From Cystobasidiomycetes sp. EMM_F5 (taxonomy: Eukaryota), in assembly GCA_051047955.1 (NCBI GenBank), contig JBPGPT010000025.1, positions 124,001-188,000 on the forward strand: a DNA stretch of 64,000 nucleotides. The letters run 5' to 3'. The notes beneath the pieces are model-generated. The model made no database searches. It was not told where the DNA came from and saw nothing but the letters and a program-made list of their open reading frames with translations. This document shows, one piece after another, positions 1 to 24,461 of the stretch (positions within the stretch are counted from its first letter, which is position 1; each line of letters opens with the position of its first letter). A program made the translations under genes and the position numbers.

Positions 1-1447
1 GTCGAGACCTACAAAGTATGCTATAGCATCTGCCCAAATCGCGGGTTGTGAGGCTCGGAGCAACCCGGTCTTGCCTTCCACAATCGTTTCGAGCGGGCCT
101 CCAGAATTGCTAGCTATAATTGGGAGACCGCACCCCATAGCTTCTAGTGGCACGATACCCAAGTGCTCGAGCGAGGGAGTGTAGAGGAGGCATTTTGTGC
201 TTTCGGCTTGCATCAGTGCCACTTTCTGCTTGTTGGACAGATTTGTGAGGAACAGGACCTGGACGTCGCTGCCTAGCGATGTGGTGGAGTGAGACAGACC
301 GCGAACCTTGCAGATGCGTTGCAATTGTTGCAGTGTATCTACGCATGACTGGACACGCTCGTCGTAACCTCCGCCAATAATGAGCCGAGTATTTTCGGGT
401 ATTGCCTTCCTTTCGAGCGCTATCGCAAACGCCTCGATGGCCAAAAGGACATTTTTCTTGGCTTCGAAGCGGTTGATAGATAGTAGAGTGGGTCGATTGC
501 TGCTAGATGATTAGCATGCAGCATCTGGCAAGTTGCTTGCCTGTAATGTGAGCGGTAGCTTACCTTGCCAACTCATCGGCTTCGGCCGTGATGCCAAAAC
601 TCTTTGCATCGATACCGGGGTACACGATTTGTAGCTGGCGATGTACTTGCGGAAAGACCGATTTGAACATTGTAGCAGTAAAGTTGGAATTGACCAGGAT
701 ACGGTCAGCCTGTGCTGTTGCGCAGCGTTGTATGTTAGTTTGGCGTAAACGCAGCTGCATGACATCACCCCACAAGTCGTAGCCTCCTCGAGCGCGTCCA
801 CTGGCACACGGTATGCCATCCTCAGTAGGCTCCTTCGCCCTTGCCCCACCACGCCGCCGTCAAAGCCGCTGCGACCCGGCGAGAGGAGGAGATCCGGAAA
901 GTGGCAGTAAAAGACGACGCGGGTACGAGTAAACCATCGCAGGAGGGGAATGCACGCGGAAAGCTGGTCGACAACGTAAATGTCGGGCGGGGCAAAGCTT
1001 GCGGAGAACCAAGTCCTGTAGAGGAGGGTAAATGTGAGGTGGAGCTGCCGGAGGATGGCCAGCACGATATGGAAGCGGCCTCGGAGGGAGACTGGGAGAG
1101 CGTTGCCCAGGACCGTCACGCTCAGCGTTCCTGCGGTCAGATTGGGAGTAAATCAGCTGGCTTGCATACTCTTTCGCAACTTGGCTCACCGTCGTTGGTC
1201 TCCTCGAAACACCTCGACGGATCCCAATGGGACGTGTAGATGTCGACAGCATGCCCTAGATCCTGCAGACTGCACGCAGCATCGACGACGAGCCGCTCAG
1301 CTCCGCCTGGAGAATATGATAATCAGGAAATGGCCAGCAAGAACTCAGCAATGAGCCAGCTGAATATCCTTGGAAAGCTGCGACCAACGCACCGATACCC
1401 AGGTCGGGGTGGATCCAGCCTACTCGGAGCGGTCGCAGCTCCGACAT
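1..1447 (-). CDS. ALG2: Alpha-1,3/1,6-mannosyltransferase Alg2 (GT4), multi-exon, 3' end runs off the window
   Basis: Spliced translation gives [29 protein letters not shown]..., [49 protein letters not shown]. These are Alg2 signature segments, joined by GT-AG introns. Confidence 0.95.
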
Positions 1448-2208
1448 GGCTGGGGTATTAGGGCTGGAGCTGGTCGAAGAATGCATATAGCCCGTGACGA
1501 AACTGACATCGTTTGATTAGGCGACTGACTGCTGATGCCCGCTGTGGAAGCCGACTGGCTGACTATTCCCCACGCTTGTCGAATTGCTGCTCGTCCTCAC
1601 TGCCATGCCAATCTTGGTCGCAACTAACGTCTCAATATTGACAATCCCCGCAAAGGCTCGCTCTCGACAGACGTGCGATGTCAAAGCGTTGTGACTGATT
1701 CGGCATCTGAGCTCTTCATTGTTTAACGCTCGAGCTAGCCCGATATCGATGGACTGCTCTAAACAATGCCAGTGGAAATGCTGCTACAGCCCGGTAATCC
1801 GACACAGAAGCATGCCGCAAGTCGGCAACTACAACTCGCCAGTTGGGATCCTACCGAGCGATATCAAAGTTCAGGAAGCTCTGTCTCTGGGACAACCGAG
1901 GTGACAATTACAGGATCCCCCTGCCTCTGTCCATTACAGGCAGACTTCCCCCAGCTCCAGATTGTCTAGCCCTGCTGTCCTCTAGTCTTGTACGTATAGA
2001 AGAAAGATCCACGCTGCGTTGTCGTCGTAAATATGGCCCTCATCGATCTATCTGCGGATGCAAAATATATTGAATGACTATTACCAGGACATTCTTTAGC
2101 TCAAGACGACTGAAGAATCCTCGATGAACCATCAATTCAACGAGGCCAGCTGGCCGTACATGGGATAGCCTGCGCTCCAACGCAAATCAGAGCCAGCAAA
2201 CTGCGACA

Positions 2209-3736
2209 ATGGTGCCCTGGCGAGCGAGGATATCGATAAAGCACGTTGGGCTGGCGAGCCTCACTGTGCTTTTGACGCTCATCACCATCACAATGCACAT
2301 CTCGAGGACTCATCGTACAGAGGGTACGCCGCTCTACAAGTCAGCGTCAGCCGTCGTCTTTGCGGAACTCTTCAAACTGGTTGCATCTCTGGTCTTGTCG
2401 CTCGGCGAGTGCAGGCAGCACATCGAGCAGGGCAATGCATCAGCTTCGAGCATAGAAATGCGCAGACTCCTTCCCAACGACTCATTGGCAAGCGGGAGCG
2501 CAGAGAATGGTGGAAACGACCGCCGAAACAACGTCACTATCAACCTCGACCGATCTGAAGTTAACAACGAAATCGACCATGATGCTGCCCCATCGACGGG
2601 AAGCACTACGTTCCTTCGCCTTGTCCGTCAGATCTATCGGGAAACCTTCTCCTCCGACTGGTACATGGTCGCTCTTCCTGCCTTTCTATTCACCTGCCAG
2701 GGGAATCTAGCATACTACGCCAGCAGTAACCTAAGCGTGCCCATCTTTCAGGTCTCCTACCAATTGAAGGTAATGTCGTGTATTCTAAGGCATTTCTCCT
2801 GGACTGCTTGCCTAAGCCTCACACTTTCATCAGATCCCAATAACCGCAATATGTTCTGTGCTCATGTTGCAGAGGCAACTGTCAAAGACGCAGTGGTTCT
2901 CCATCGTCATGCTGGCTTCGGCCGTAGCACTCATTCAATGGGCCGACGGGCCTACGTCTACAGGAAAGGAAGCAGATCATACCGATATGAACCCTGTGGC
3001 AGGCTTTGCCGCAGTCTGTCTAGCGTGTCTTTCGAGCGGTTTCTCTAGCGTATTCTTCGAGCGGCAGCTCAAGCGTAATACGTCCACTGCGTCCCATAAC
3101 AGCACTTCGAAACTGCCAGCTCCCGGAATCTGGATCAGAAATGTACAATTATCCCTCTTTTCGCTCTTCTTTGGTAGTATCATCTACGTCTTCACGTCGC
3201 TCGACTCCCTCGGCGACATCTGCAAGGGCTTTACGCCCCTCGTCTGGATCGTTGTTGCACTCAGCGCCACCGCAGGATTAACGGCGGCCGTCGTCATGAA
3301 GTATGCAGACAATATCGCAAAAGCTTTTGCAGCGAGCTGCTCCATCATTTTGGGGTTTGCGCTCAGTATACCCATATTCCAATATACGGTAAAGCCGGGC
3401 GTCCTACTCGGGAGCGCGGCCGTCATCTGGGCTACCGTTTTATTTAGTGAGCCGCGTGACAGCTGGTTCATACCCTACATTCAGACTGATGTATACTACT
3501 ACGCGAATCACGTAGCCACTTCGTCCCTTCCCGCACAATATTCGCCCGCCAATGACACAGCTGCTGAGCCTTCGAAGGAGGAACACAGTTCATTACCGCC
3601 TTCACGACTATCGGAGTCGTCGATGCATCATCAGACTATACTGCTACGGCCTGAACCACGTCTCAGTGACTTTGCAGGCCTATCTGCAGACGGAGCTCGA
3701 AGGAGAAGCAGCTATGCAATCGCGATGGTCAGTTGA
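2209..3736 (+). CDS. Nucleotide-sugar transporter, SLC35A/Gms1-like (probable UDP-galactose transporter); one intron 2770-2833
   Basis: Motifs AVVFAELFKL, ALPAFLFTCQGNLAYYASSNL, FQVSYQLK|IPITA, CLSSGFSSVFFERQLK, IWIRNVQLSLFS and VMKYADNIAKAFA are typical of the UDP-Gal/CMP-sialic acid transporter family. Several hydrophobic helices are present. Confidence 0.9.
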
Positions 3737-4147
3737 CGAGCCATAGCGATGTATGGAGAGTCAGTACCGGTACGACAGGTGGGAATTACGACATAGATTA
3801 TGACATAGAGCGTCAGGGAACAACGAGAGCTTTCCGCATCTCATGTAGCAAATTGCGTTGTTATTGCCTGCGCGGCGAAGAGCCGTAATGCTAAAGCTGA
3901 ATTTATGCGATATGGCACATATATACGTGGCTTGCGATTGGATGCACATCATTACAGCGCGAATGGCTCTAGATTTCCCCGACTCGCTCGATGTTCTCGT
4001 GGTCGCGCTATGCTTGTCTTCGTAGCATGGTCGTTACTTCTGGTACTGCACCCTTTCGATGTCTAATCAACTGATAGTACACGGCAGCCGCCTATGCAAC
4101 CCTTTTCCCGATATCTGTCTCCACCCTCTCCCGGCGATGGAACATCC

Positions 4148-5448
4148 TCATTGCACAGTAATACCGTTCCATGCTCCCGCGGAGAAGGCCATGCCATTAT
4201 ACCGAAATTCTCCAAATACTTCAGAAGGCTGACCTTGGATGATGGAAGGAACAGCCACTTGCTGCACGAGAGGCGGAGAAACCGCGTAAGATTTGAGTCT
4301 GCCTTCCTGCACCATGTATGTGGTCACCGTGAGATCGATGGGGACTTGCAGGTTATTGGAGACCTCTTCGATAATCTTTGGCAGCGCGCTTTTGCGGATG
4401 ATGTAGCCTGCAAAGCTACAAACGGTGAGGCTAGGATCAGCCGCCGGGAAAGCAGTTCCGTTATGGAATGGGCTTACCCCACGGAAGTCCGCACGCGACT
4501 CACGAGCTCGCGGTCGTTGCGTTGATTTCCATCACTCCACCACTCCAACATGTTCAGCTGGCTGAGCATCAGGATATCCCAATCTTCTGGAACGATCCTC
4601 CACACCTCCTCCATGATTCTTCCTGCGTTGACGTTTATCTGCGAAGCGAAACAATAAGCCCCCTGCAATGCCAGGACCGCATGAGCATGCCCCACATCAA
4701 CATCGTCCTCTAGTACTAGGACACGCTCGTAGCCCTTGCGCACTGCGTCTTGCCAACTTTATAGAAGGCGTTAGACACTGAAACTCTCCACATTGCACAC
4801 CTGATGCAAGCGCACTTACATGCTCAAGTGACCCAAGAGGCAGGCCAAGGCGTATTTTGGTCGAATGCGATATCTTCGTCTGTGGTGTCGGGCTGCAAGA
4901 TGGTCATTGGCCGTTAATGATGCATCCATAGGCAGGGTACGTTTGCTTTCGCCGTCATGTTCGTCCGAGATGGAAGACGAGAATGCGTTGCGATACGTTT
5001 GGTTGAAGCTCTCTGACTTGATGTCAGGACCCCAGTGTGCAGTAAAGTCGATGCCGCCGTACTGCAGCATTTTCGTCATTTCCCGCAGACGGTCTGCGCT
5101 TGCTGTTAAGACCTAGAATGCGAAGGAGGTACGGCTAAGTGAGTATACTGTCGTTGAGACCGATGCCGCGAGGACATTCAGCGTACGTAAACATGCGATG
5201 CCCCGAATGTCTCTCGCTTCGGAGGCCGAGTAGACAGAGCAAGGAGCTTCTCCAGCGATATGTCGGGGACAGCTTGCTTGATAGTCGCTGCATTCGGCCA
5301 GGCGAGCAACAGCATGCCTGTGAGTGAAGGTGGGAAACCATTCGGATACTGTCCAGAATCACTGAATTTACAGACACGCACCGACCAGACATGCTGCTGC
5401 AGCTACAATCCTGACTACAGCCGGCTGCTGGCTCTTGAGCTGCAGCAT
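4148..5448 (-). CDS. GT25-like glycosyltransferase, paralogue 1 (type II membrane protein, about 6 exons)
   Basis: Reconstructed as MLQLKSQQPAVVRIVAAACLVG|MLLLAW...FGASHVY|VLTASADRLREMTKML...YALACLLGH...VLVLEDDVD...WDILML...FAGYIIRKSALPKII...PIDL...YNGMAFSAGAWNGITVQ*. C-x-x-x-H, LEDD, AY-x-x-x-x-x-x-x-K-I-I and PID match GT25 (LgtB/COLGALT) motifs. Confidence 0.8.
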
Positions 5449-5956
5449 GACTACAGGTTGCGAGCTCCTTGATCGTCAGGCACTGACTGCCCGTCAGCTG
5501 TGCCCTGTGGCCATGTCAGAGGTTGGACATCCAAATGCAGGTTGTTCGATAGAACGCTGTAGCTTTATACTCGGTGATTGTATTACACGCTGCGCCTCAA
5601 TGCCTGCTCGCTCAGGAAAAGCTTCCTTCCGTTTCAGGCTAAAGGCCAGTCCCGCATTATACTTCCTTCCGCAACGAGATCCGGAAGCAACCAGCAGCCA
5701 AATCCGTTCACTCTCGCCAAGCTGCCCTGGTATGCCGAGAACCTGACAGCGACTGATCAAATATCGCAGCTGCAATGAGCTAGCTCTGACATGACAAAAT
5801 TCTCGCTTTCCTTCTAGCTGGAGGCCGCAGTGCTTTTCGCCTCCAAACTCTGCAGGATCCTGTAACTCCGGCGTTCATGTACATATCGATGTTCACCTGG
5901 CTCTGGCCGACCAAGTAGTACAATCCAGCCTCCAGCCTCATTATCGCTCCAAGAGT

Positions 5957-7221
5957 ATGCTCGAAAGGCGAGTCGCCGTTTGGGCGAAGGTGTCGGCCGG
6001 CCTAGTCTGCACGTGTGGTAAGACGAATCTCCGCAAACCGTGTAAAGACCGCTAATGATGGCGTCTGCTGATGCAAAGGGCTCATACTACTCACAAATCC
6101 CTACTCACCGTCGGAACTATCGCGAGCAGCAGTTTCGTCCACTAGTCGCTATTGGCAGCGCGCGAGCCGCCAAACTGGAACTCAGCTCGGAGTTTCCCAT
6201 ACATATGTCTTGACAGCGTCACAAGCACGGCTGAATGAGGCCACAACGATGCTCAATTACGCTGGTATCGACTTTACTCCCATCTGGGGTCCCGACGTTT
6301 GGTCCCAGGCCTTCAACGAGACGTATCGCAGCGTCTTTCCGGACAAGGGTGATCTCGCCGAAATCGTGCACTGGAAGAAGCGGGATGCAGAAGAGGTAGA
6401 AAAAGCAGAGGATGCACAAGCGCGCCTGGCTGGCGATGGGAATCCTGTGGAAAGTCTGGCCGCAGTAAGCAGTCGAGAGCAACATTCAAAGCTGTTCAAG
6501 CGGAAATATACTCTTCGGTACCGATACGCGCTGGCTTGCCTACTCGGTCACCGAGCAGTGTACGCCGGTTCTCTTATTTTGAGACTGTATTCTGGCTGAC
6601 TCGCTTTGAGGCTCGGCCAGCTGGGAAGACGCGCTTCGAAACAATTACGATCGGGTTTTAGTACTTGAGGATGATGTTGACGTAAGTCTTCGAATAAAGA
6701 ATGCAGCACAGGCCCACTGATCGATCTGATTCACTTTCCGACAGCTGAGCTTCAGCATAGGACCAGTCATGGATGAAGTCTGGCAACAGATTCCCGACGA
6801 CTGGGATTTGATCACTCTTGGCTTCGCAAGGGACCGCCATTGGTGGGATGACAAAGAGCCGCAAAAGCGTCAAGTTGTCGGGCGAATGGCCAAGACTTGG
6901 GGGTAAGGTAGCTTCATTTCGACTGCAACGCGTTCTCTAATGCTTGCACTTGCAAGAACGTTGGCATATATCGTTCGCGCAAGCACGTTGCCCAAGATAC
7001 TGCAAGCCACCGCCGAGAACTTGCAAGATCCGGTTGACTTGACCATTACTTGGAAAATGCCAGAGGCTCTGAAGATAAAGCTGTATGGGGTGTGGCCTCT
7101 GCAAGCGCAGCAGCTTCCCGTACAGTCCATCATTCAGAATCAACCTACAGACGCCGTCGCAGAATTTGGCTACAATGGGCTGGCATTTGCATCTGGCGCG
7201 TGGAAAAGCGTCACGCCTTGA
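5957..7221 (+). CDS. GT25-like glycosyltransferase, paralogue 2 (5 exons)
   Basis: MLERRVAVWAKVSAGLVCTCG|LILLTNP...LGVSHTYVLTASQARLNEATTML...YALACLLGHRAV|WEDA...VLVLEDDVD|...WDLITLG...TLAYIVRASTLPKIL...PVDL...FGYNGLAFASGAWKSVTP*. Confidence 0.8.
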
Positions 7222-7704
7222 TAGATTGTCACCCTTCTGCGTCCCTGCAGTATGGATTGGAAGTGGTGCAGAATAAGGGTTAGTCTTGGCGGTTATGTCA
7301 ATGCATAGGTCCTCAGCTCAACAGCTCGTTCGATATGACCCGTAAGGTAGTAAAATAATGACACGCTGAAGTTCAGCTTTCACGATAAGAATAGGCTATT
7401 AGTGCAGAGATGTATCGGGTAGCGCAATAATTGTCTACTAATAACCCGCTGCGTGTGCGATCTCTCTTGTGCGTGCTCCGTAGTGTCAGTGGACGTGCTC
7501 CGGTCTATCGCATCGTTTCGTCCCAATATTAGACCTATGAAATTTGCTTCCTTACTGGCTGATCAAAAGCTAGGGACCGACCCCATCAAAAGTTGCCGAC
7601 GCCTGCTTGTACGTGTACGTGGGGGCTTGATCCAGTCTTGTCTATACTGCGCATACTCGTTGTGCCGTCAGTGCACATTGCGAGTATCGTCCGTGGGTCT
7701 CCAC

Positions 7705-8943
7705 ATGAAGGAGTTCCGCTCAAAAACCCCTTGGGGCAGCGGCAAGGTCACGTTGGCGGCGTGTGGCTCCGTCTTTGGTGGGGATGAACATTGATTATTG
7801 CGCCGCTATTGGGGCCCAGCTGAGCAAGGAATGTTTCCAGCAATGCTGCTCATCTTGACAACCCATAACCAAAGATTCGTGTTGCGGGAAGACGGCGAGG
7901 CTTCGATTGCGCCTTTGGCAGACATCAGCGCAACGAGGAACCCGCTCGGCGCATCACACGCATACGTTCTCACTGCCAATGAGCTCCGACTGAAAGAAAT
8001 GACGACAATGCTCGACTATGCCGGAATCGAATTCACTCCACACCTGGGACCCAATGTATGGTCCGGAGAATTCAATGAAACCTACCACAAAGTGTTTCCG
8101 GACAGCAGCGACGATGACTTCATCTATTACGACGGGAGGAGAGATTTGTCGCACGTTGAACGCGATCCATCTTCACAACAAAGAAGAAGTATACCTCAGC
8201 ACGATAAACGAGCCTACAGGCGGCGATTTCGCTATGCCCTCGCATGTCTGCTTGGACACCGCGGCATGTAAGCTTGAGCACCGCTAGTCGTAATTTCTGG
8301 CTGAGACATACCGGTTCTAGTTGGCAGGATGCTCTTGCCCGGCAACATGACTCAATTCTAGTGTTCGAAGACGACATTGATGTGAGTATAAGCGAGGCCT
8401 TGCTGTCGATACCGTTACCCCTTCGCGCTCTGACAAGAAGTTAATAACGCCAGATCAACGTCAACATCGCCAGAATCATGGAGGATGTTTGGCAGCGAAT
8501 ACCCGACGACTGGGATCTTCTCTTGTTAGGACACGATCGGATGCGGCACTGGTGGGGCGACGAGGAGCCACAGGAGTTCGACCTCTTTGGGCGTCTTGAC
8601 AATACGTATGGGTAAGGCATCGCTTTTTATGTGTTTCCACAACCTTTGCTGACCATTGTGCGACTCTTCGTTTAGCATGTTTGCCTACTTCGTACGCGGC
8701 CGCGCGCTGCCTTCATTATTGCAAGGAACGTCCGAAAAAATGTCTGATCCCATCGATCAAACGGTTACATGGGATATGGCACTCGAAAAGAAAATCGTCA
8801 TGTATGGCGCATGGCCAGTATTGGCATATCAGCTGCCCGTGCCATCATTGATCCAGGACAGATTGACGGACACTGCGGGAGGGTTCGGATACAACGGCAT
8901 GGCGTTCTCGTCTGGAGCTTGGAACCGAGTTACTGTGAGCTGA
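7705..8943 (+). CDS. GT25-like glycosyltransferase, paralogue 3 (5 exons)
   Basis: MKEFRSKTPWGSGKVTLAACGSVFA|MLLILTT...LGASHAYVLTANELRLKEMTTML...YALACLLGHRG|...ILVFEDDID|...WDLLLLG...MFAYFVRGRALPSLL...PIDQ...FGYNGMAFSSGAWNRVTVS*. Confidence 0.8.
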
Positions 8944-12666: not shown

Positions 12667-14256
12667 TCACCCGCCAGCTCGCCGTATACTCGCTCGCAAG
12701 ACTTGTCGGTTCTCGTCGTAGCGCTCTCTTCTGAATTCATCAAACTCCACCTCACTCCTCTGCCAGGCACCAGGTCGAGCCCGCCGAAGACTGGCAACAG
12801 CCTGCATCTCCGTCACTCCTTCAGGTCGACGTATAACGACACGGTCGTCCAGCCAGTCGTAGGCTTCCATGTCTTCCTGACTCGCCAAAAAGGGCACGTT
12901 GCAGATGATACCCGCAGATACGCTCGAACTCGCCTTGTCAATGTGATACGCCTTGTCGGCAAATGCCGGTACGAGGATGTCGTTCTCCCGAAGCGTCGAA
13001 TAGAAGTCGGGATACATGGCCTCGCTCCGTCTTTCAACGACATGCCTCAACAGCTTTGGCGTAACGACATCGCCATGGTCTTGACCAAGCAACGTCAGGA
13101 TGAAACGATCGTCTGATGAAACCAACGGAAGTAGTTCTGTTGCATCGCCGTTGAGAGAGTAGCCAAATATCTCTGGGTTGACTGCAAGCAGACGACCAAA
13201 GTCAGCGGAAAGGCTACAATCATTCCATCACAGGTTCACGCACACATAATCTCCTGTTCCAGATCTCGAAAGACGCCTGCGTAATCTCTGCGGTGCGCTT
13301 CTATGTTTCCTTGAATGATTGCCCTCGAGAGGCGAGGCTTTTCATGCAGTACTAATGGCGACGACGTAGAAGACAGCGGAAAGATGGGTGCAATAAAGTC
13401 AATGTCGACGTTTGAGAAAGGCCACGTTTCGAGATCCGTCGAGCCTGGCTCAAAGCCGAGCGCCTGGAGGATAGCACCAAAAATGTGAGGAGAGAGAACG
13501 TATATGTCAAGGGCATCTCTCTCTGCCAAGTCGGCCATAAGGTTGTAAATATTCATGAGGTTGAATGCTTCGTGCACAAGGCATCCAATCCTAAACTTGT
13601 GTCTACGCTTGTCCCAAATGTCGAGCAGCTGCTGGCCCTGCCGTTCTAAAGTGTACTCGCACGAAGCGAGAATGACCAGGTCCAGCCTGGCATCTGCATC
13701 AGACTCGTCTGCGAGCCGAGTAGGCAGATCATCCCATGGCAGAACGGTGCCATTGTAGAATGAGTCCGAGATTTCTTCGAAACCCCACCTCCAGCCATTC
13801 CTGAATAGCTGAATGTTGGCTTCGGGGATTTCTGAGAGCGTATACAGGACTGCTCCCAGGACTGTTAAACGAAGAACAATCTATTAGTCCTGAAAGTTTC
13901 CGGTAGCGAAACATCCGCTTACCCTCATCGTGCACACCCCAGTACTCTGACACTGCCACGTTAAAGCCAGCAGTGGGGGGAGACGCGACCCACGTCCCGT
14001 TTGTAGAGCTTTGTATTGTTTCATGCGATGCCACAACGGGCCATTGGGCATGTTTGGGGGATTGCCCAGTCCGATTCGGCTCGTTCAACAATTCCCACGC
14101 TTGCATAGGATGATTTGGCGTCTTTACGAGCATCGAAGTACAGAGAATGGTCGTCACGACAGCCAGCGCCGCTAGACCCCTTCCCACGTCCGACCAAGGC
14201 GGACTGCACCAGCTCCAGTCGTGCTCGTCGCGACCGTACATGACATGATCTCGCAT
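12667..14256 (-). CDS. Uncharacterised type II membrane protein, probable GT-B-fold glycosyltransferase (about 3 exons)
   Basis: N-terminal TM (LAALAVVTTILCTSMLV), then VSEYWGVHDE|V..., LDLVILASCE, CLVHE, VLSPHI, IIQGNIEAHRRDY, DILVPAFADKAYHIDKASSSVSAGIICNVPFLA. The last segment resembles the C-terminal nucleotide-binding region of GT-B enzymes. The family is inferred. Confidence 0.55.
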
Positions 14257-18248: not shown

Positions 18249-20091
18249 TCATGCCATTTTCTCCCACGTAATATCGCCTTGGCGATGACTCAGATTGGCA
18301 CTCCACTCACATGCTTGCTCGAGTGTGAGTTGCTTGTTGTCACTGAGCGCGAACGCAAAGGTATTGCCAGAGTCTTCGCCATCGAACAGAAGCTGGCATG
18401 TGCCTTCACGTTAGCGAAACTGGAGATGAGGATCTGTATCCACCGACTAACACTTGGAGGCAGGTCTTTCCAGGGCGTGTCTGTTTCGGGTGATGACACG
18501 ACGCAGTGCATCTCGCCCCAGTATACATCACCGCTAGTCCGCCATAGGTGGTAGTATGATACAATCACTCTGCGGTCCTCCACGCAGACAGTCAAGTCGG
18601 GCACCCTGTCGTTACGATGAGTCCCGACCGCTTCTGCCTTGCGGTAGACGCTCATGTCTCGCTGTATAGCCAGCGGGAGCTTGTCTATCGGAGTATTGTA
18701 TTTGAATACGTGCATTCTGCCACTCGACGGATGCGTGTATACACCGCACAGCTGACTGATGTCAAGCTTTGGTGGTCTGTTTTGATCTGTTGATGGAAAT
18801 GACGCGGGTCCTATGTTGTAGCGGTATGGATGATCTTTACGGAGTCTGAAGATCAGCCATCAGTTCAAAGTCATGTTATCAATATCGACAGGTCACAGTG
18901 CTGACCTGGTCGCCCAATCAATGCTGCTTATATCAAAGTGCAATTCCATGGCCCTGAGCCCAACCAGCCATCCAAGTGTCCCTCCCACACGTTCGACGTT
19001 GGTAAGTATGGTGATTCCAAAGTCGCTACCGGGTGACCAAACTGTGAATGCGCCAGCACCCGGCATATCGCCTTCATGGCAGCATACGTCTATTCCGCTG
19101 TAGGACAAACAGTCAGGTCATGCTTGTGTCTGCTCACGTAAAACCATACCGCAATGTGAATCGCTGAACCCCGAGACCATATGTCGGTGCAGAGAACTCG
19201 CAGTATGCTGCTACTCCTCTCTCGCCTATGAAAGCGCCTTGTATGCGTGAGAGGGTCTGTGCGGTGACGATCTTGCTGAACGCATCGTGGCTGATGCAGG
19301 GATCAGTGTGGGGAGGCGCATTGCGAGAAAGCCGTAGCAAGAAGCTGAGCCATTTTGCCATGTCGCCTGCGGAAGAATGGATACCTCCCGCATAGCCGCA
19401 CGGGTTCTCGGCGGCCAAACTCGTTTGCACCGATGTAAACCAGTGCACAATGCCGTCCTGCGTCGCAACTGCACCGGGTACTTGTCTATCCGCATTCAGC
19501 GATGGGTCAAAGCTCGTCGACGCCATGCTCAACTTGTCGAAGACGTTTTTCCGGAAGAAGGTCTCGATGTCGTCTCCGCTAAGACGGCCGATGATGAAGC
19601 AGAGGATAGCGAAAGGCTCGTTCTGATAGTTGAAGTCACGAAGCAGATCTCCGGTAAATCTGATGGACGCAAAGTTTTCGCACATGTCGGTCAACTTCAG
19701 TGAGGTAGGCTGGAGGTCAAAAGCTCTATTGAAGGTCATCAGCAGTCATGCATCGATATGGTGGCTGACTTGGAACTCACAAAGGCTGCTTGCCAATGAC
19801 GTGACATAACAAGTCTTGAACTTGTATGGTACTTTCCGTATGCTTGTTGAGCATGGAAAACTCGGGCAGTATGGGTTTGACGGTGTCATCCCATCTCACC
19901 TTGCCTTGATCTACGAGCATGCCCATGCCGATAGCGATGAACAGTTTCGTATTCGAGCATACCTGGTATACAGTGTCGACTTTACCGGCGCCAAAGGCCA
20001 GACATGTCCCGTCTGCCAAGCTGACGGTGACAGCGGGGACGCTGTATTGTTTGCTGAGCGTTTCGACGTAGGCTACCAAGTTGGGATCCAT
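18249..20091 (-). CDS. Beta-lactamase/AmpC-like serine hydrolase (penicillin-binding fold), paralogue 1, multi-exon
   Basis: SxxK (CSNTKLF), LVDQGKVRWDD, DLLCH, YxN (FNYQNEPF), AGGIHSSAGDMAKWL, HxG (CHEGDMPG). No signal peptide. Last exon ends WEKMA*. Confidence 0.85.
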
Positions 20092-20730: not shown

Positions 20731-22434
20731 ATGCGCATAAGCCTCTTCTCCGCAACAGCCCTTCTGGCTGTAGTCAATCTATCTGAAGCTCGTGTACTGC
20801 AGCACAGGCAGTCCAACATCACTTCTACGGGCAACAGTACTACTTCCAATGGCAGCAATAGCTCGGTTATCAATATCGATGATAATCCCGTTGGTGCCTT
20901 GAATACCGCCGCCTGGGCTATCATAGTCAGTCAAGCTGTTTCACCCTGTCAACACTCGCGCTAAAGTACAAACAGTATACCTACCCGCTTGCCATCTTTG
21001 CGAACGTAGTTGGTGGAATCTTGCGCACTAATACCGTCAATACTTTGGCTAATCAGCTATATCTGGCGTCACCGGTGAGCGGAAGAGCTTGATTGCAGCT
21101 TCCTAGCGCGGAATAACTAGATTTACCTCAACAGGACGTTACTGGAGTTATCAAGCCAAACGTAGACGTGCTATACTCTCGCATCGCAGTTGATCTTTCA
21201 GCAGGCGACTTGGTACTGACTATCCCGTCAGTTCCCTCGAATCGATATGCCGTCTGGCCCTTATATGATCCCTACGGCAATGTCATTGTAGAATTGGGAA
21301 CAGTCAACAACAGCACCGCAGGTGACTATCTAATCCATCTTGACCGCACAGGAACTGCTCCATTCGGTCTGGTCAATGTGACAAATAGCACGTCCCCCTA
21401 CAAAGGCATAATCAACACATATTCAGTCTACAACACTGGCCTGGTCCGCTTTGCGGTTCTGACAAATTCTACCGAGGACATCGACCAAATCCACGCACTT
21501 CAGAACGTTACAAGATTGCAGGTCGTACCACGAAATGGTACAACAAATACCACAAGCTTGCCTTCTTTGACGTCCGTCACAAACGGATCGTTCCTGGGCA
21601 TAGCATCGCCTGCTCAGCAGCTTGCCTTTGCTGCTCAGATTGTCCAGTATGCGCCTCCACCCGTCTCTGCAGAACGGTCTCGAGTGTACAGCAACATTGC
21701 TGCTGCTGGTGTGCAAAATGGCACCTTCGTCGCATCCAACAGCGTCAACTACACTGCCGCAGCTGCTATAGCCAATGCATCGATTCTAGCGGATATCTCT
21801 GCCCCGTCACACCAGCGGCCACAGGGAAACAATTGGACCCTCCCTATTCCTTCGTACCAAGGCTACTTTGGAACACATTGTGAGTTCTCGAACTTTGTAC
21901 AGATAGACGGGACGGAGGGTATACTGACAGGTTTTCGCAGACGCCTCCGCTGCGTATGTCGCGCTGTATGGGTATCAACAGCAGACGGTCAAGCAGACTC
22001 TGTATCCCGGATACAACAGTCTAGGTTATACTACAATCTTCAATCTTCCAGCTAACACATCGGTACTCGTCACTTTCAGCGGCAAGCCACCGGTACTCTA
22101 CCCTGGATTCTGGTCGTTAAGCGTCTACGGCTCCGACCAACAGCTAGTTCGCAATAGCCTGTACAGGTTCAAGGTTGGTTCAGCAAGCAACCAGCTGGTA
22201 TATCGCAATGGACGGTCCATCTACGGCGCCAACGCTAGCGTTTCTGATAACGGACCCTTCGACATTCTCATTCAGCCCGCCAATCTCCCACCGCCTGCCA
22301 ATTGGACTTCCAACTGGTTGCCAGGCGACGTCACATTCTCATGGCTGCTAAGGTGGTACATTGGATCAGATAACATTACGAATGGTGCTTACGTATATCC
22401 GCAAGTTCGCCAAATTCCTGCAATCTTGGCTTAG
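20731..22434 (+). CDS. Secreted DUF1254 + DUF1214 domain protein (4 exons)
   Basis: Signal peptide MRISLFSATALLAVVNLSEA. VIKPNVDVLYSRIAVDLS...RYAVWPLYDPYGN is DUF1254-like. GFWSLSVYGSDQQLVRN...NWLPG..FSWLLRWY is DUF1214-like. Many N-x-S/T sequons. Confidence 0.85.
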
Positions 22435-22598: not shown

Positions 22599-24461
22599 CT
22601 ATTCAATTTTCGTCCAGGTTATGCAGCCTTGACCATCAATTAGATTGGCGCACCAGCCAAATGCCATCTCGAGCTTGACGGAGCCTGCACATCGAGAGAA
22701 TGCGAAAGTATCGCCTGACTCCTGACCGCCGTACATCACCTGTATACATAGGAAAAGTTCAAATGCATTAATTAAGCTGGGTTGCCGAGCACACGTATCG
22801 GACTTACATGTCTGGGCAGACACTTCCAAGGCTCTGCCGCATTCAGTCCCGGCAGCACCCAATGTACCTCGGCCCAGTAGGTATCGCCTGCCGCAGCCCA
22901 GAGATTATAGCAAGACCTGATGAGGGTCTGTTCCTCAAAGCAAGCAGTCAACAGCGGCACAACGTCTGAGCGCGGACTGCCAGCCATGTCTGCGGTGCGA
23001 AAATGGGTGACAACGGATAGGATGTCCCTTGGCAATTGGTCGCTTGGCGTGTTTGAAGGGAAGATGTGCATGCGCACACCACCCGGATTCCGATATACAC
23101 CACACACGGTCTGCAAGCTCAGCGAAGGATCATGAGGCAAGATGAGGGCGGGGTAGATTGCAGGATCCATATCTAGTCGTGATTTACGATGCTGTAGAAA
23201 CCTGCGGACTCGTGCTTAGTCTCGAAGCTACGGTCAGCACGTTCAGCCGCACCGATTGTTCCAGTCTATGGGGGTCAGACCAAAATGAAGCTCGAAAGCC
23301 TTTAGAGCAATCATCCATCCAATCGTTCCGCCAACTCTCTGAAAGTTTGTTAGGACGGTTATCCCAAAGTCGCGGCCGGGAGACCACATTGTACAGGATC
23401 CCGCGCCAGGCAACCCGCCCTCGTGTCCGCACAAGTCTATACCGCTGAAAACTGACAATCAGCGAGTAGGTTCTTGTGAGCTTGTTGGAGCGCACCAGAG
23501 TGTAAAGCGTTGTACTGCCATTGCATAAGTAGCAGCGGAGAACTCAGGATACGACGAGCGACCTTTCGGAACAACGAAGACTGTCTGTAAGGTGGACAGG
23601 GTCTGTGCGGTAATGATTTCCGCAAAAGTGTCTCCAGTCAAGTCTGGATCCATAGGCAAACGTTCTCCGCGCGAGAGGCGCAATAGATACGAGATCCATT
23701 TCGACATGTCGCCCGTCGTCGATGTAAGGCCGCCAGATGCGGCGAAAGGGTTGTCGGATTGGAGACCAGATAAGTACGGCTTGAACCAGTGAACATCTCC
23801 GCCAGGAAGCGAGACTGCGCCTTGTATTTGCTCTCTAAGGTTATTTGACGGATCGAATGAGGTACATGACATGCCCAGTCTGTTAAATACGCGAGAGCGA
23901 AAGAAGTCTTCGAGGCTTTGCCCCGATATGCGATGAATGATGACAGATGCGAGCGCGAACGGCTCGTTCTGATAGTCGAAGCCTTGATGTATTTCGCCAT
24001 GAAATCTCGTAATTGCGAAATTATCCAAGATGTCTGACGTCCCCAGCGTCAAAGGAAGCAGATAGAACGCTCTGTCGACGGATTTACAGAAGGTGGAAGG
24101 GATTCTCAGTCTGCGAAAGGGAGATTGCGGATTGTGACCATGCGCACAGAGGTTGGCTACCAATGACATGGCTGAAGAGATCTCGAACACGGATAGAGCT
24201 TTCGGTGTGCTTGTTCTGCATACGAAACTCGGGCAAGATGGACACGATGCGGTCGTCCCAGCTCAGCTTGCCCTCGTCGACGAGAAGGCCAACACCGACG
24301 GGGATGAAGAGCTTGGTGTTTGATCCAACGGGAAAGACAGAGTCAGCCGTCACTCGAGCTCCAAAGGTCTGGGATGTCCCGTTAGCCAGGCTGATTGCCA
24401 TTGCCTGCACGCCATGTTTCCCAGCGAGGTGCTGCGCATAGGCAGACAGAGCTGGGTCCAT
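22599..24461 (-). CDS. Beta-lactamase/AmpC-like serine hydrolase, paralogue 2, multi-exon
   Basis: GSNTKLF, LVDEGKLSWDD, DLFSH, FDYQNEPF, SGGLTSTTGDMSKWI, CGHEGGLPG. Same exon layout as paralogue 1; ends WTKIE*. Confidence 0.85.

Follow-up and report, generated by a model that had tools for sequence, protein, structure and literature searches.

We analysed a stretch of 64,000 nucleotides (the window; positions 124001-188000 of contig C168, JBPGPT010000025.1) from Cystobasidiomycetes sp. EMM_F5, whose intron-containing genome comprises 18.3 Mb in 253 contigs and about 6,300 genes (a count taken from the numbering of the source annotation). At positions 1-8943 we observed five genes in a row: a glycosyltransferase family 4 (GT4) gene, a transporter of the SLC35A family, and three glycosyltransferase family 25 (GT25) genes, designated GT25-A, GT25-B and GT25-C (see the table). 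A first-pass annotation had placed five consecutive genes here, and all five were recovered as intact, open models. The GT4 gene has 393 codons inside the window, its C-terminus lying just to the left. In all five models every intron was GT-AG and there were no internal stops; pseudogene status was ruled out for the genes, as the reading frames are open.

Table. Coordinates of the genes and spacers of the run and of related features. Positions are those of the window unless a locus or contig is named.
Feature	Position	Strand	Details and evidence
GT4 gene, read as ALG2	1447 to beyond base 1	(-)	PF00534 87.8 bits
GT4 gene exons	1447-1393, 1306-1190, 1130-774, 714-564, 502-beyond base 1	(-)	5 exons
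Head-to-head spacer, GT4 gene/transporter	1448-2208	.	761 bp; gene models
SLC35A transporter	2209-3736	(+)	487 aa; 2 exons, intron 2770-2833; PF04142 166.8 bits
GT25-A	5448-4148	(-)	326 aa; 6 exons; hydrophobic segment residues 10-28; PF01755 44.9 bits (P0013)
Head-to-head spacer, GT25-A/GT25-B	5449-5956	.	508 bp; gene models
GT25-B	5957-7221	(+)	341 aa; 5 exons; hydrophobic segment residues 6-24; PF01755 39.4 bits (P0014)
GT25-C	7705-8943	(+)	328 aa; 5 exons; hydrophobic segment residues 15-33; PF01755 31.7 bits (P0010)
GT25-D (fourth paralogue)	L013:1492-2694 = C168:58.2-59.4 kb	(-)	319 aa; intact; introns as GT25-B
Flanking genes of the five-gene run			PX/Vps5 gene on one flank, DEAD-box helicase on the other
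Type II membrane protein	12667-14256	(-)	no Pfam match; atlas look-alikes GT4/GT-B (0.96)
Second copy of the GT4/GT-B-like type II membrane protein	L036:569-1940	(-)	

The inner introns of the GT25 models match the spliced proteins of the source (P0010, P0014 and P0032), and P0013 is off by two residues at one intron. The first exons and the membrane anchors that they encode are inferred here, since the source proteins begin further downstream (the source annotation is without these exons) and no RNA confirms them. The four paralogues all have a first intron of phase 1, and the first exons of GT25-B and of the fourth paralogue (GT25-D) were of equal length and similar sequence.

All three spliced GT25 proteins passed the PF01755 cut-off of 24 bits. 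Single exons barely register in Pfam (only one of nine pieces matched PF01755, at E 0.039). The top look-alikes in the protein atlas were also PF01755 proteins (score 0.95), and the GT25 domain of COLGALT1 was the best solved relative both by profile search (E 5e-9) and when the GT25-C model was compared with solved structures using Foldseek (E 2e-13). Alignment of this model with COLGALT1 (PDB 9evj) using VIA-align gave a Z of 21.0 and a root-mean-square deviation of 3.2 over 204 residues. The ten best structural matches were COLGALT1, mimivirus R655 and a bacterial beta-1,4-galactosyltransferase (Z 15.7-21.0), with the next fold at 13.8. The model had a predicted local distance difference test score (pLDDT) of 72.9, and its input alignment included 11 outside GT25 rows, hence the fold test is not fully independent; an earlier model from a 3-row alignment (pLDDT 36) was unusable. 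Judged from the profile and the predicted structure, all three transferases are GT25 enzymes with a GT-A fold, which bears out the family assignment of the first-pass annotation.

As read from the alignment, the COLGALT1 positions R354, G377, C412, E435-D436-D437 (EDD) and D522 are retained in all four paralogues, so that both the metal motif (EDD) and the catalytic aspartate (D522 position) are intact. The roles of these residues follow two structural papers, in which the sugar is without density in the GT25 site (PMC12987934, PMC12003778). Of the canonical uracil-pocket positions, G377 and C412 are retained, with Ala, Tyr and Ala standing at L348, G408 and G411. R351 is not retained, nor is the collagen-binding K470/Y494/W495 as a set. 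The proteins do not fit a collagen galactosyltransferase, as they consist of a single domain of 326-341 aa and the acceptor cleft is not retained as a set.

Each of the four paralogues has one N-terminal hydrophobic segment on its inferred first exon (mean hydropathy 1.80-2.46), and one N-glycosylation sequon is common to all four, which fits a luminal catalytic domain. Given the predicted first exons, the proteins would have the architecture of type II secretory glycosyltransferases, in agreement with the N-terminal anchors proposed earlier.

GT25-D went unmentioned in the first-pass annotation, as did many more glycan genes on this contig. It lies 66 kb from the array, with GT25-B as its closest copy (56% identical). 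The four paralogues are 41-56% identical and have four intron positions in common. Synonymous sites are saturated in the paralogue pairs (proportion of synonymous differences 0.71-0.87) with a proportion of nonsynonymous differences of 0.28-0.40, and as no internal stops are present, we take the copies to be old and under selection. The genome has one further GT25, which is longer and distant (contig C1, L011). When a one-exon profile was compared with 1.84 billion proteins, nine matches were obtained: four from this genome, four environmental fragments, and one (P0009) that was rejected as a false repeat match. Two of the four fragments may be one gene, leaving about three foreign genes. The environmental members P0007 and P0017 are different proteins that each list two contigs (the longest of 3,493 bases), perhaps hinting at a tandem GT25 pair in some relative.

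A full-length subfamily profile, run on 5,365 candidates (145-531 residues), picked out 12 distant GT25 proteins, and one GT25-B exon searched among longer proteins gave none in 4,531 candidates. Scans of metagenomes with two exon alignments gave 134 and 113 pattern matches, and viral and prokaryote scans gave 13 and 76; none of these was confirmed, with patterns that reach close relatives only. On these sequence searches, the GT25 subfamily appears small, old and rare. Environmental GT25 proteins (P0019-P0030) scored up to 62 bits against the subfamily profile, above the 39 bits of the genome's own GT25 on C1; as they were chosen by the same profile search, this score is a lead only on the origin of the subfamily.

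The transporter lies above the cut-offs of PF04142 and TIGR00803, retains the E-K pair, K148 and K297, and matches the mouse SLC35A1 structure (E 5e-39), so its earlier assignment to the SLC35A family stands. The first-pass annotation had also asked for a separate housekeeping UDP-galactose transporter. Six SLC35A loci were found with PF04142 (on C232, C168, C79, C1, C206 and C178; a weak match on C35 was set aside, since it looks like another family), and the window copy, being one of six, is not the sole housekeeping gene. In a 26-row tree (without the C1 copy, and with Cryptococcus Ugt1 not among the rows) the C232 and C178 copies fell with other basidiomycete rows in a separate, canonical UGT1-like clade. 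The window copy grouped with the C206 and C79 copies, a Mixia protein and six environmental proteins (support 100/99). A quick tree of 68 rows agreed, its C1 row being unreliable. In the 26-row tree the C206 paralogue had a branch of 0.22 and the window copy one of 0.84, so that by its sequence this transporter is evolving fast. Most members of this second basidiomycete clade (100/99; L006, L003, the window copy, P0050 and environmental proteins) are without N126 and Q129, and no characterised member was seen. No close orthologue of the window transporter was seen among the best 120 of 492 matches.

We further compared its residues using the three-pocket model for selectivity among SLC35A proteins (PMC8411240). 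The window transporter retains E75, K78, Q125, Y130, K148, T152, S213, N235 and K297 (human SLC35A2 numbering), which includes four of four sugar-pocket and three of four nucleobase-pocket residues; at the G239 position it has the Ser that is usual in fungal copies. In the middle pocket, three of the five SLC35A2 residues for UDP-galactose are lost (N126 to Gly, Q129 to Ala, Q278 to Ser). The N126 and Q129 changes are common to the C206 copy and six environmental relatives. Gln stands at position 278 in 30 of the 31 rows, as well as in the three canonical copies of this genome, and Ser in the window transporter alone. Q129 and Q278 have been tied to the beta-phosphate in the same paper, single mutants being active and combined mutants reduced (PMC8411240). 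SLC35A1 has Ala at both of these positions, where the window transporter has Ala and Ser. A CMP-sugar transporter of the SLC35A1 type was nevertheless ruled out, as Ser stands at the cytosine-selecting Tyr 214 position and the CMP-sugar synthetase family PF02348 has no match in this genome (which may be incomplete).

A canonical UDP-galactose transporter of the SLC35A2/UGT1 type was likewise rejected. The label of a UDP-galactose-type transporter is unproven, since the protein falls outside the canonical clade, evolves fast and has lost three middle-pocket residues, and we do not retain it. In this transporter family, cargo is hard to predict from homology (PMC5773217). Genes for GalE, UDP-xylose synthase and GMD are present in the genome; for a UDP-galactofuranose route, PF03275 was unmatched in the genome, although a fungal mutase may escape detection by this model.

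The GT4 gene has one match in the genome. The analysis gives a single-copy GT4 gene, and the name ALG2, given on sequence motifs, is our assumption. ALG2 uses GDP-mannose at the cytosolic face of the endoplasmic reticulum. As a single-copy enzyme of this kind it would be a bystander, and it is most likely not part of any module here; its inclusion in the unit, as first proposed, is therefore dropped.

When we examined the wider contig, the stretch C168:31-138 kb contained GT8, GT61, GT32 and GT43 genes, together with GT25-D and a further GT8 match that is weak (E 0.002). It also contained an unclassified type II family in four copies, two GT-B-like genes, and two genes that we take to be CAP64-like. 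Glycan genes are dense at C168:31-68 kb (L038, L037, L018, L019), where GT8, GT61, GT43 and GT32 genes, the CAP64-like pair, the four type II copies and GT25-D lie with an AA14 lytic polysaccharide monooxygenase; this part is a stronger cluster candidate than the transporter-GT25 run. Seven Pfam families fall within about 38 genes (P 2e-4 assuming 200 transferases, with limits drawn after looking); after allowing for 171 such stretches P is 0.03 (range 0.0004-0.33). Most glycosyltransferase loci are dispersed elsewhere in the genome, C168 holding one of 12 GT32 matches, one of four GT43 loci, the single GT61, none of four GT8 and none of eight GT90 (lower bounds, four families having been picked since they were already seen on the contig). 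The contig also holds all four GT25 subfamily members, four of five copies of family X (which has no Pfam match) and the two closest copies of family Y. No glycan genes were seen, by eye, at 138-218 kb. A weak GT8-like type II gene (L017:7097-8020, (+)) adjoins a gene (L017:1-5226, (-)) whose product is large, looks secreted, and combines a PIG-L deacetylase domain with many DUF7402 repeats.

The reading that we prefer, and to which we give an even chance, is that the transporter and the GT25 genes form an accessory module of donor supply and transferases for a surface glycan, with a UDP-sugar as the donor. In its favour, an intact, long-diverged GT25 trio adjoins an extra, fast-evolving SLC35A copy with an altered pocket. 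The GT25 enzymes would act in the Golgi lumen as inverting transferases that depend on Mn2+. Each would put one beta-linked sugar on a position of its own in a secreted polysaccharide, a glycoprotein of the wall or a glycolipid. The adjoining transporter would import their UDP-sugar donor against UMP, on top of the housekeeping UGT1-like copies, with ALG2 lying outside the module. Within this reading UDP-galactose, the leading guess for the donor, has about half the weight, and the remainder is split among UDP-xylose, UDP-glucose and a UDP-N-acetylhexosamine. If the linkage is functional, the cargo of the transporter would reveal which donor three orphan enzymes use, and the three-pocket model could be tested on the naturally changed Q278 position.

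Several observations weigh against the module. The linkage is known from this one genome, GT25-D has no adjoining transporter, and the donor could come from the remaining five SLC35A copies (no glycosyltransferase was seen beside these five, long open reading frames being judged by eye). If the human results apply here, a transporter lacking N126, Q129 and Q278 would carry less UDP-galactose, and as the uracil pocket of the GT25 proteins is remodelled, even the nucleotide of their donor is a presumption. The upstream regions had no common motif above background: no 7-mer was present in all four regions (0.4 expected), and 6-mers in all four numbered 17 against 10 expected, a value reached by 5% of random sets. 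Alternatively, local GT25 duplicates may be fed by the general Golgi pool, with the SLC35A copy and ALG2 adjoining them by accident, which we regard as a serious explanation of somewhat lower probability. Local duplication is common on the contig, as the GT25, family-X and family-Y copies indicate, and most transferases of the genome are dispersed. With about 6,300 genes, about 14 transporter loci and an assumed 100-200 transferases, a transporter beside any glycosyltransferase is expected 0.4-0.9 times. For an SLC35A gene next to a GT25 locus, however, the expectation is only 0.006 (a pairing chosen after the fact), and the copy beside the array is the very one with the unique pocket change and the long branch. 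The three GT25 genes count as a single duplication series, which leaves two independent adjacencies; we consider a non-random transporter-GT25 adjacency suggested, but not decisively.

The lost middle-pocket residues, the long branch and the missing close orthologue would also fit a weakened or regulatory transporter (e.g. a heterodimer partner of another SLC35A) that supplies nothing specific. This is unlikely in our estimate, since the 487-aa frame is open, all four sugar-pocket and three of the four nucleobase-pocket residues are retained, and the N126 and Q129 changes recur in the conserved C206 copy and the environmental relatives. Transferases on both sides of a transporter are expected 0.004-0.014 times by chance, and the head-to-head arrangement with ALG2 could point to a five-gene unit in which a canonical UDP-galactose transporter serves the galactosylation of N-glycans. 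The position of the transporter outside the canonical clade, and an ALG2 that is single-copy and has no need of a luminal donor, make this very improbable. A bolder form of the accessory module, which we hold to be doubtful, is that transporter and enzymes have shifted together to a donor new for SLC35A and fungal GT25 proteins, since the nucleotide pockets of both are remodelled. The module would then end a 107-kb capsule or exopolysaccharide locus of about 19 glycan genes in 10 families, with a GT25 subfamily possibly from outside fungi.

Among other features, the source annotation fuses the gene at 12667-14256 to the helicase gene (P0157), probably in error. A DUF1254 gene (window 21117-22052, (+)) lies between two similar genes (18293-19745 (-) and 23462-24262 (-)), whose products we presume to be beta-lactamase-fold serine hydrolases. 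Five tandem NAD-dependent epimerase/reductase matches were seen at C188:677-684 kb.

Compared with known systems, the window GT25 proteins are closest to COLGALT1/GLT25D1 in sequence and structure and retain its EDD, C412, G377, R354 and D522, but they are without its N-terminal second domain, carry a single anchor, have lost the collagen cleft and R351, and have a remodelled uracil pocket. Bacterial GT25 beta-1,4-galactosyltransferases (PDB 8xc8, 8xkd) share the fold (Z 15.7-17.0) and PF01755, although identity is about 17%; such enzymes (LgtB/Lic2A) act on lipooligosaccharide and have no secretory anchor. The longer GT25 of the same genome also has PF01755, a similar EDD-to-next-strand spacing and an N-terminal anchor, but exceeds 700 codons, has other introns, scores 39 bits against the subfamily profile and has no adjoining transporter. 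For fungal GT25 activity, such a cluster or the second basidiomycete SLC35A clade, no literature was found in a search that most subscription journals lay outside; supplementary tables of carbohydrate-active enzymes, also outside it, may list the subfamily. For Cystobasidiomycetes, wall monosaccharides alone are known and a glucuronoxylomannan-like polymer is predicted (PMC8355462). Cryptococcus Ugt1 and human SLC35A2 share with the window transporter the SLC35A family, the sugar-pocket residues and most nucleobase-pocket residues, whereas the window copy belongs to a clade apart from the canonical basidiomycete copies, with N126, Q129 and Q278 changed. Loss of Ugt1 gives GXMGal-deficient, attenuated Cryptococcus cells (PMC12493134). 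In Aspergillus, the glfB/ugtA transporter gene is kept beside ugmA of its pathway (PMC9939772). In that case the gene next door makes the donor, and the pair stays linked across species, whereas in the window, in one genome, the partners of the transporter are transferases.

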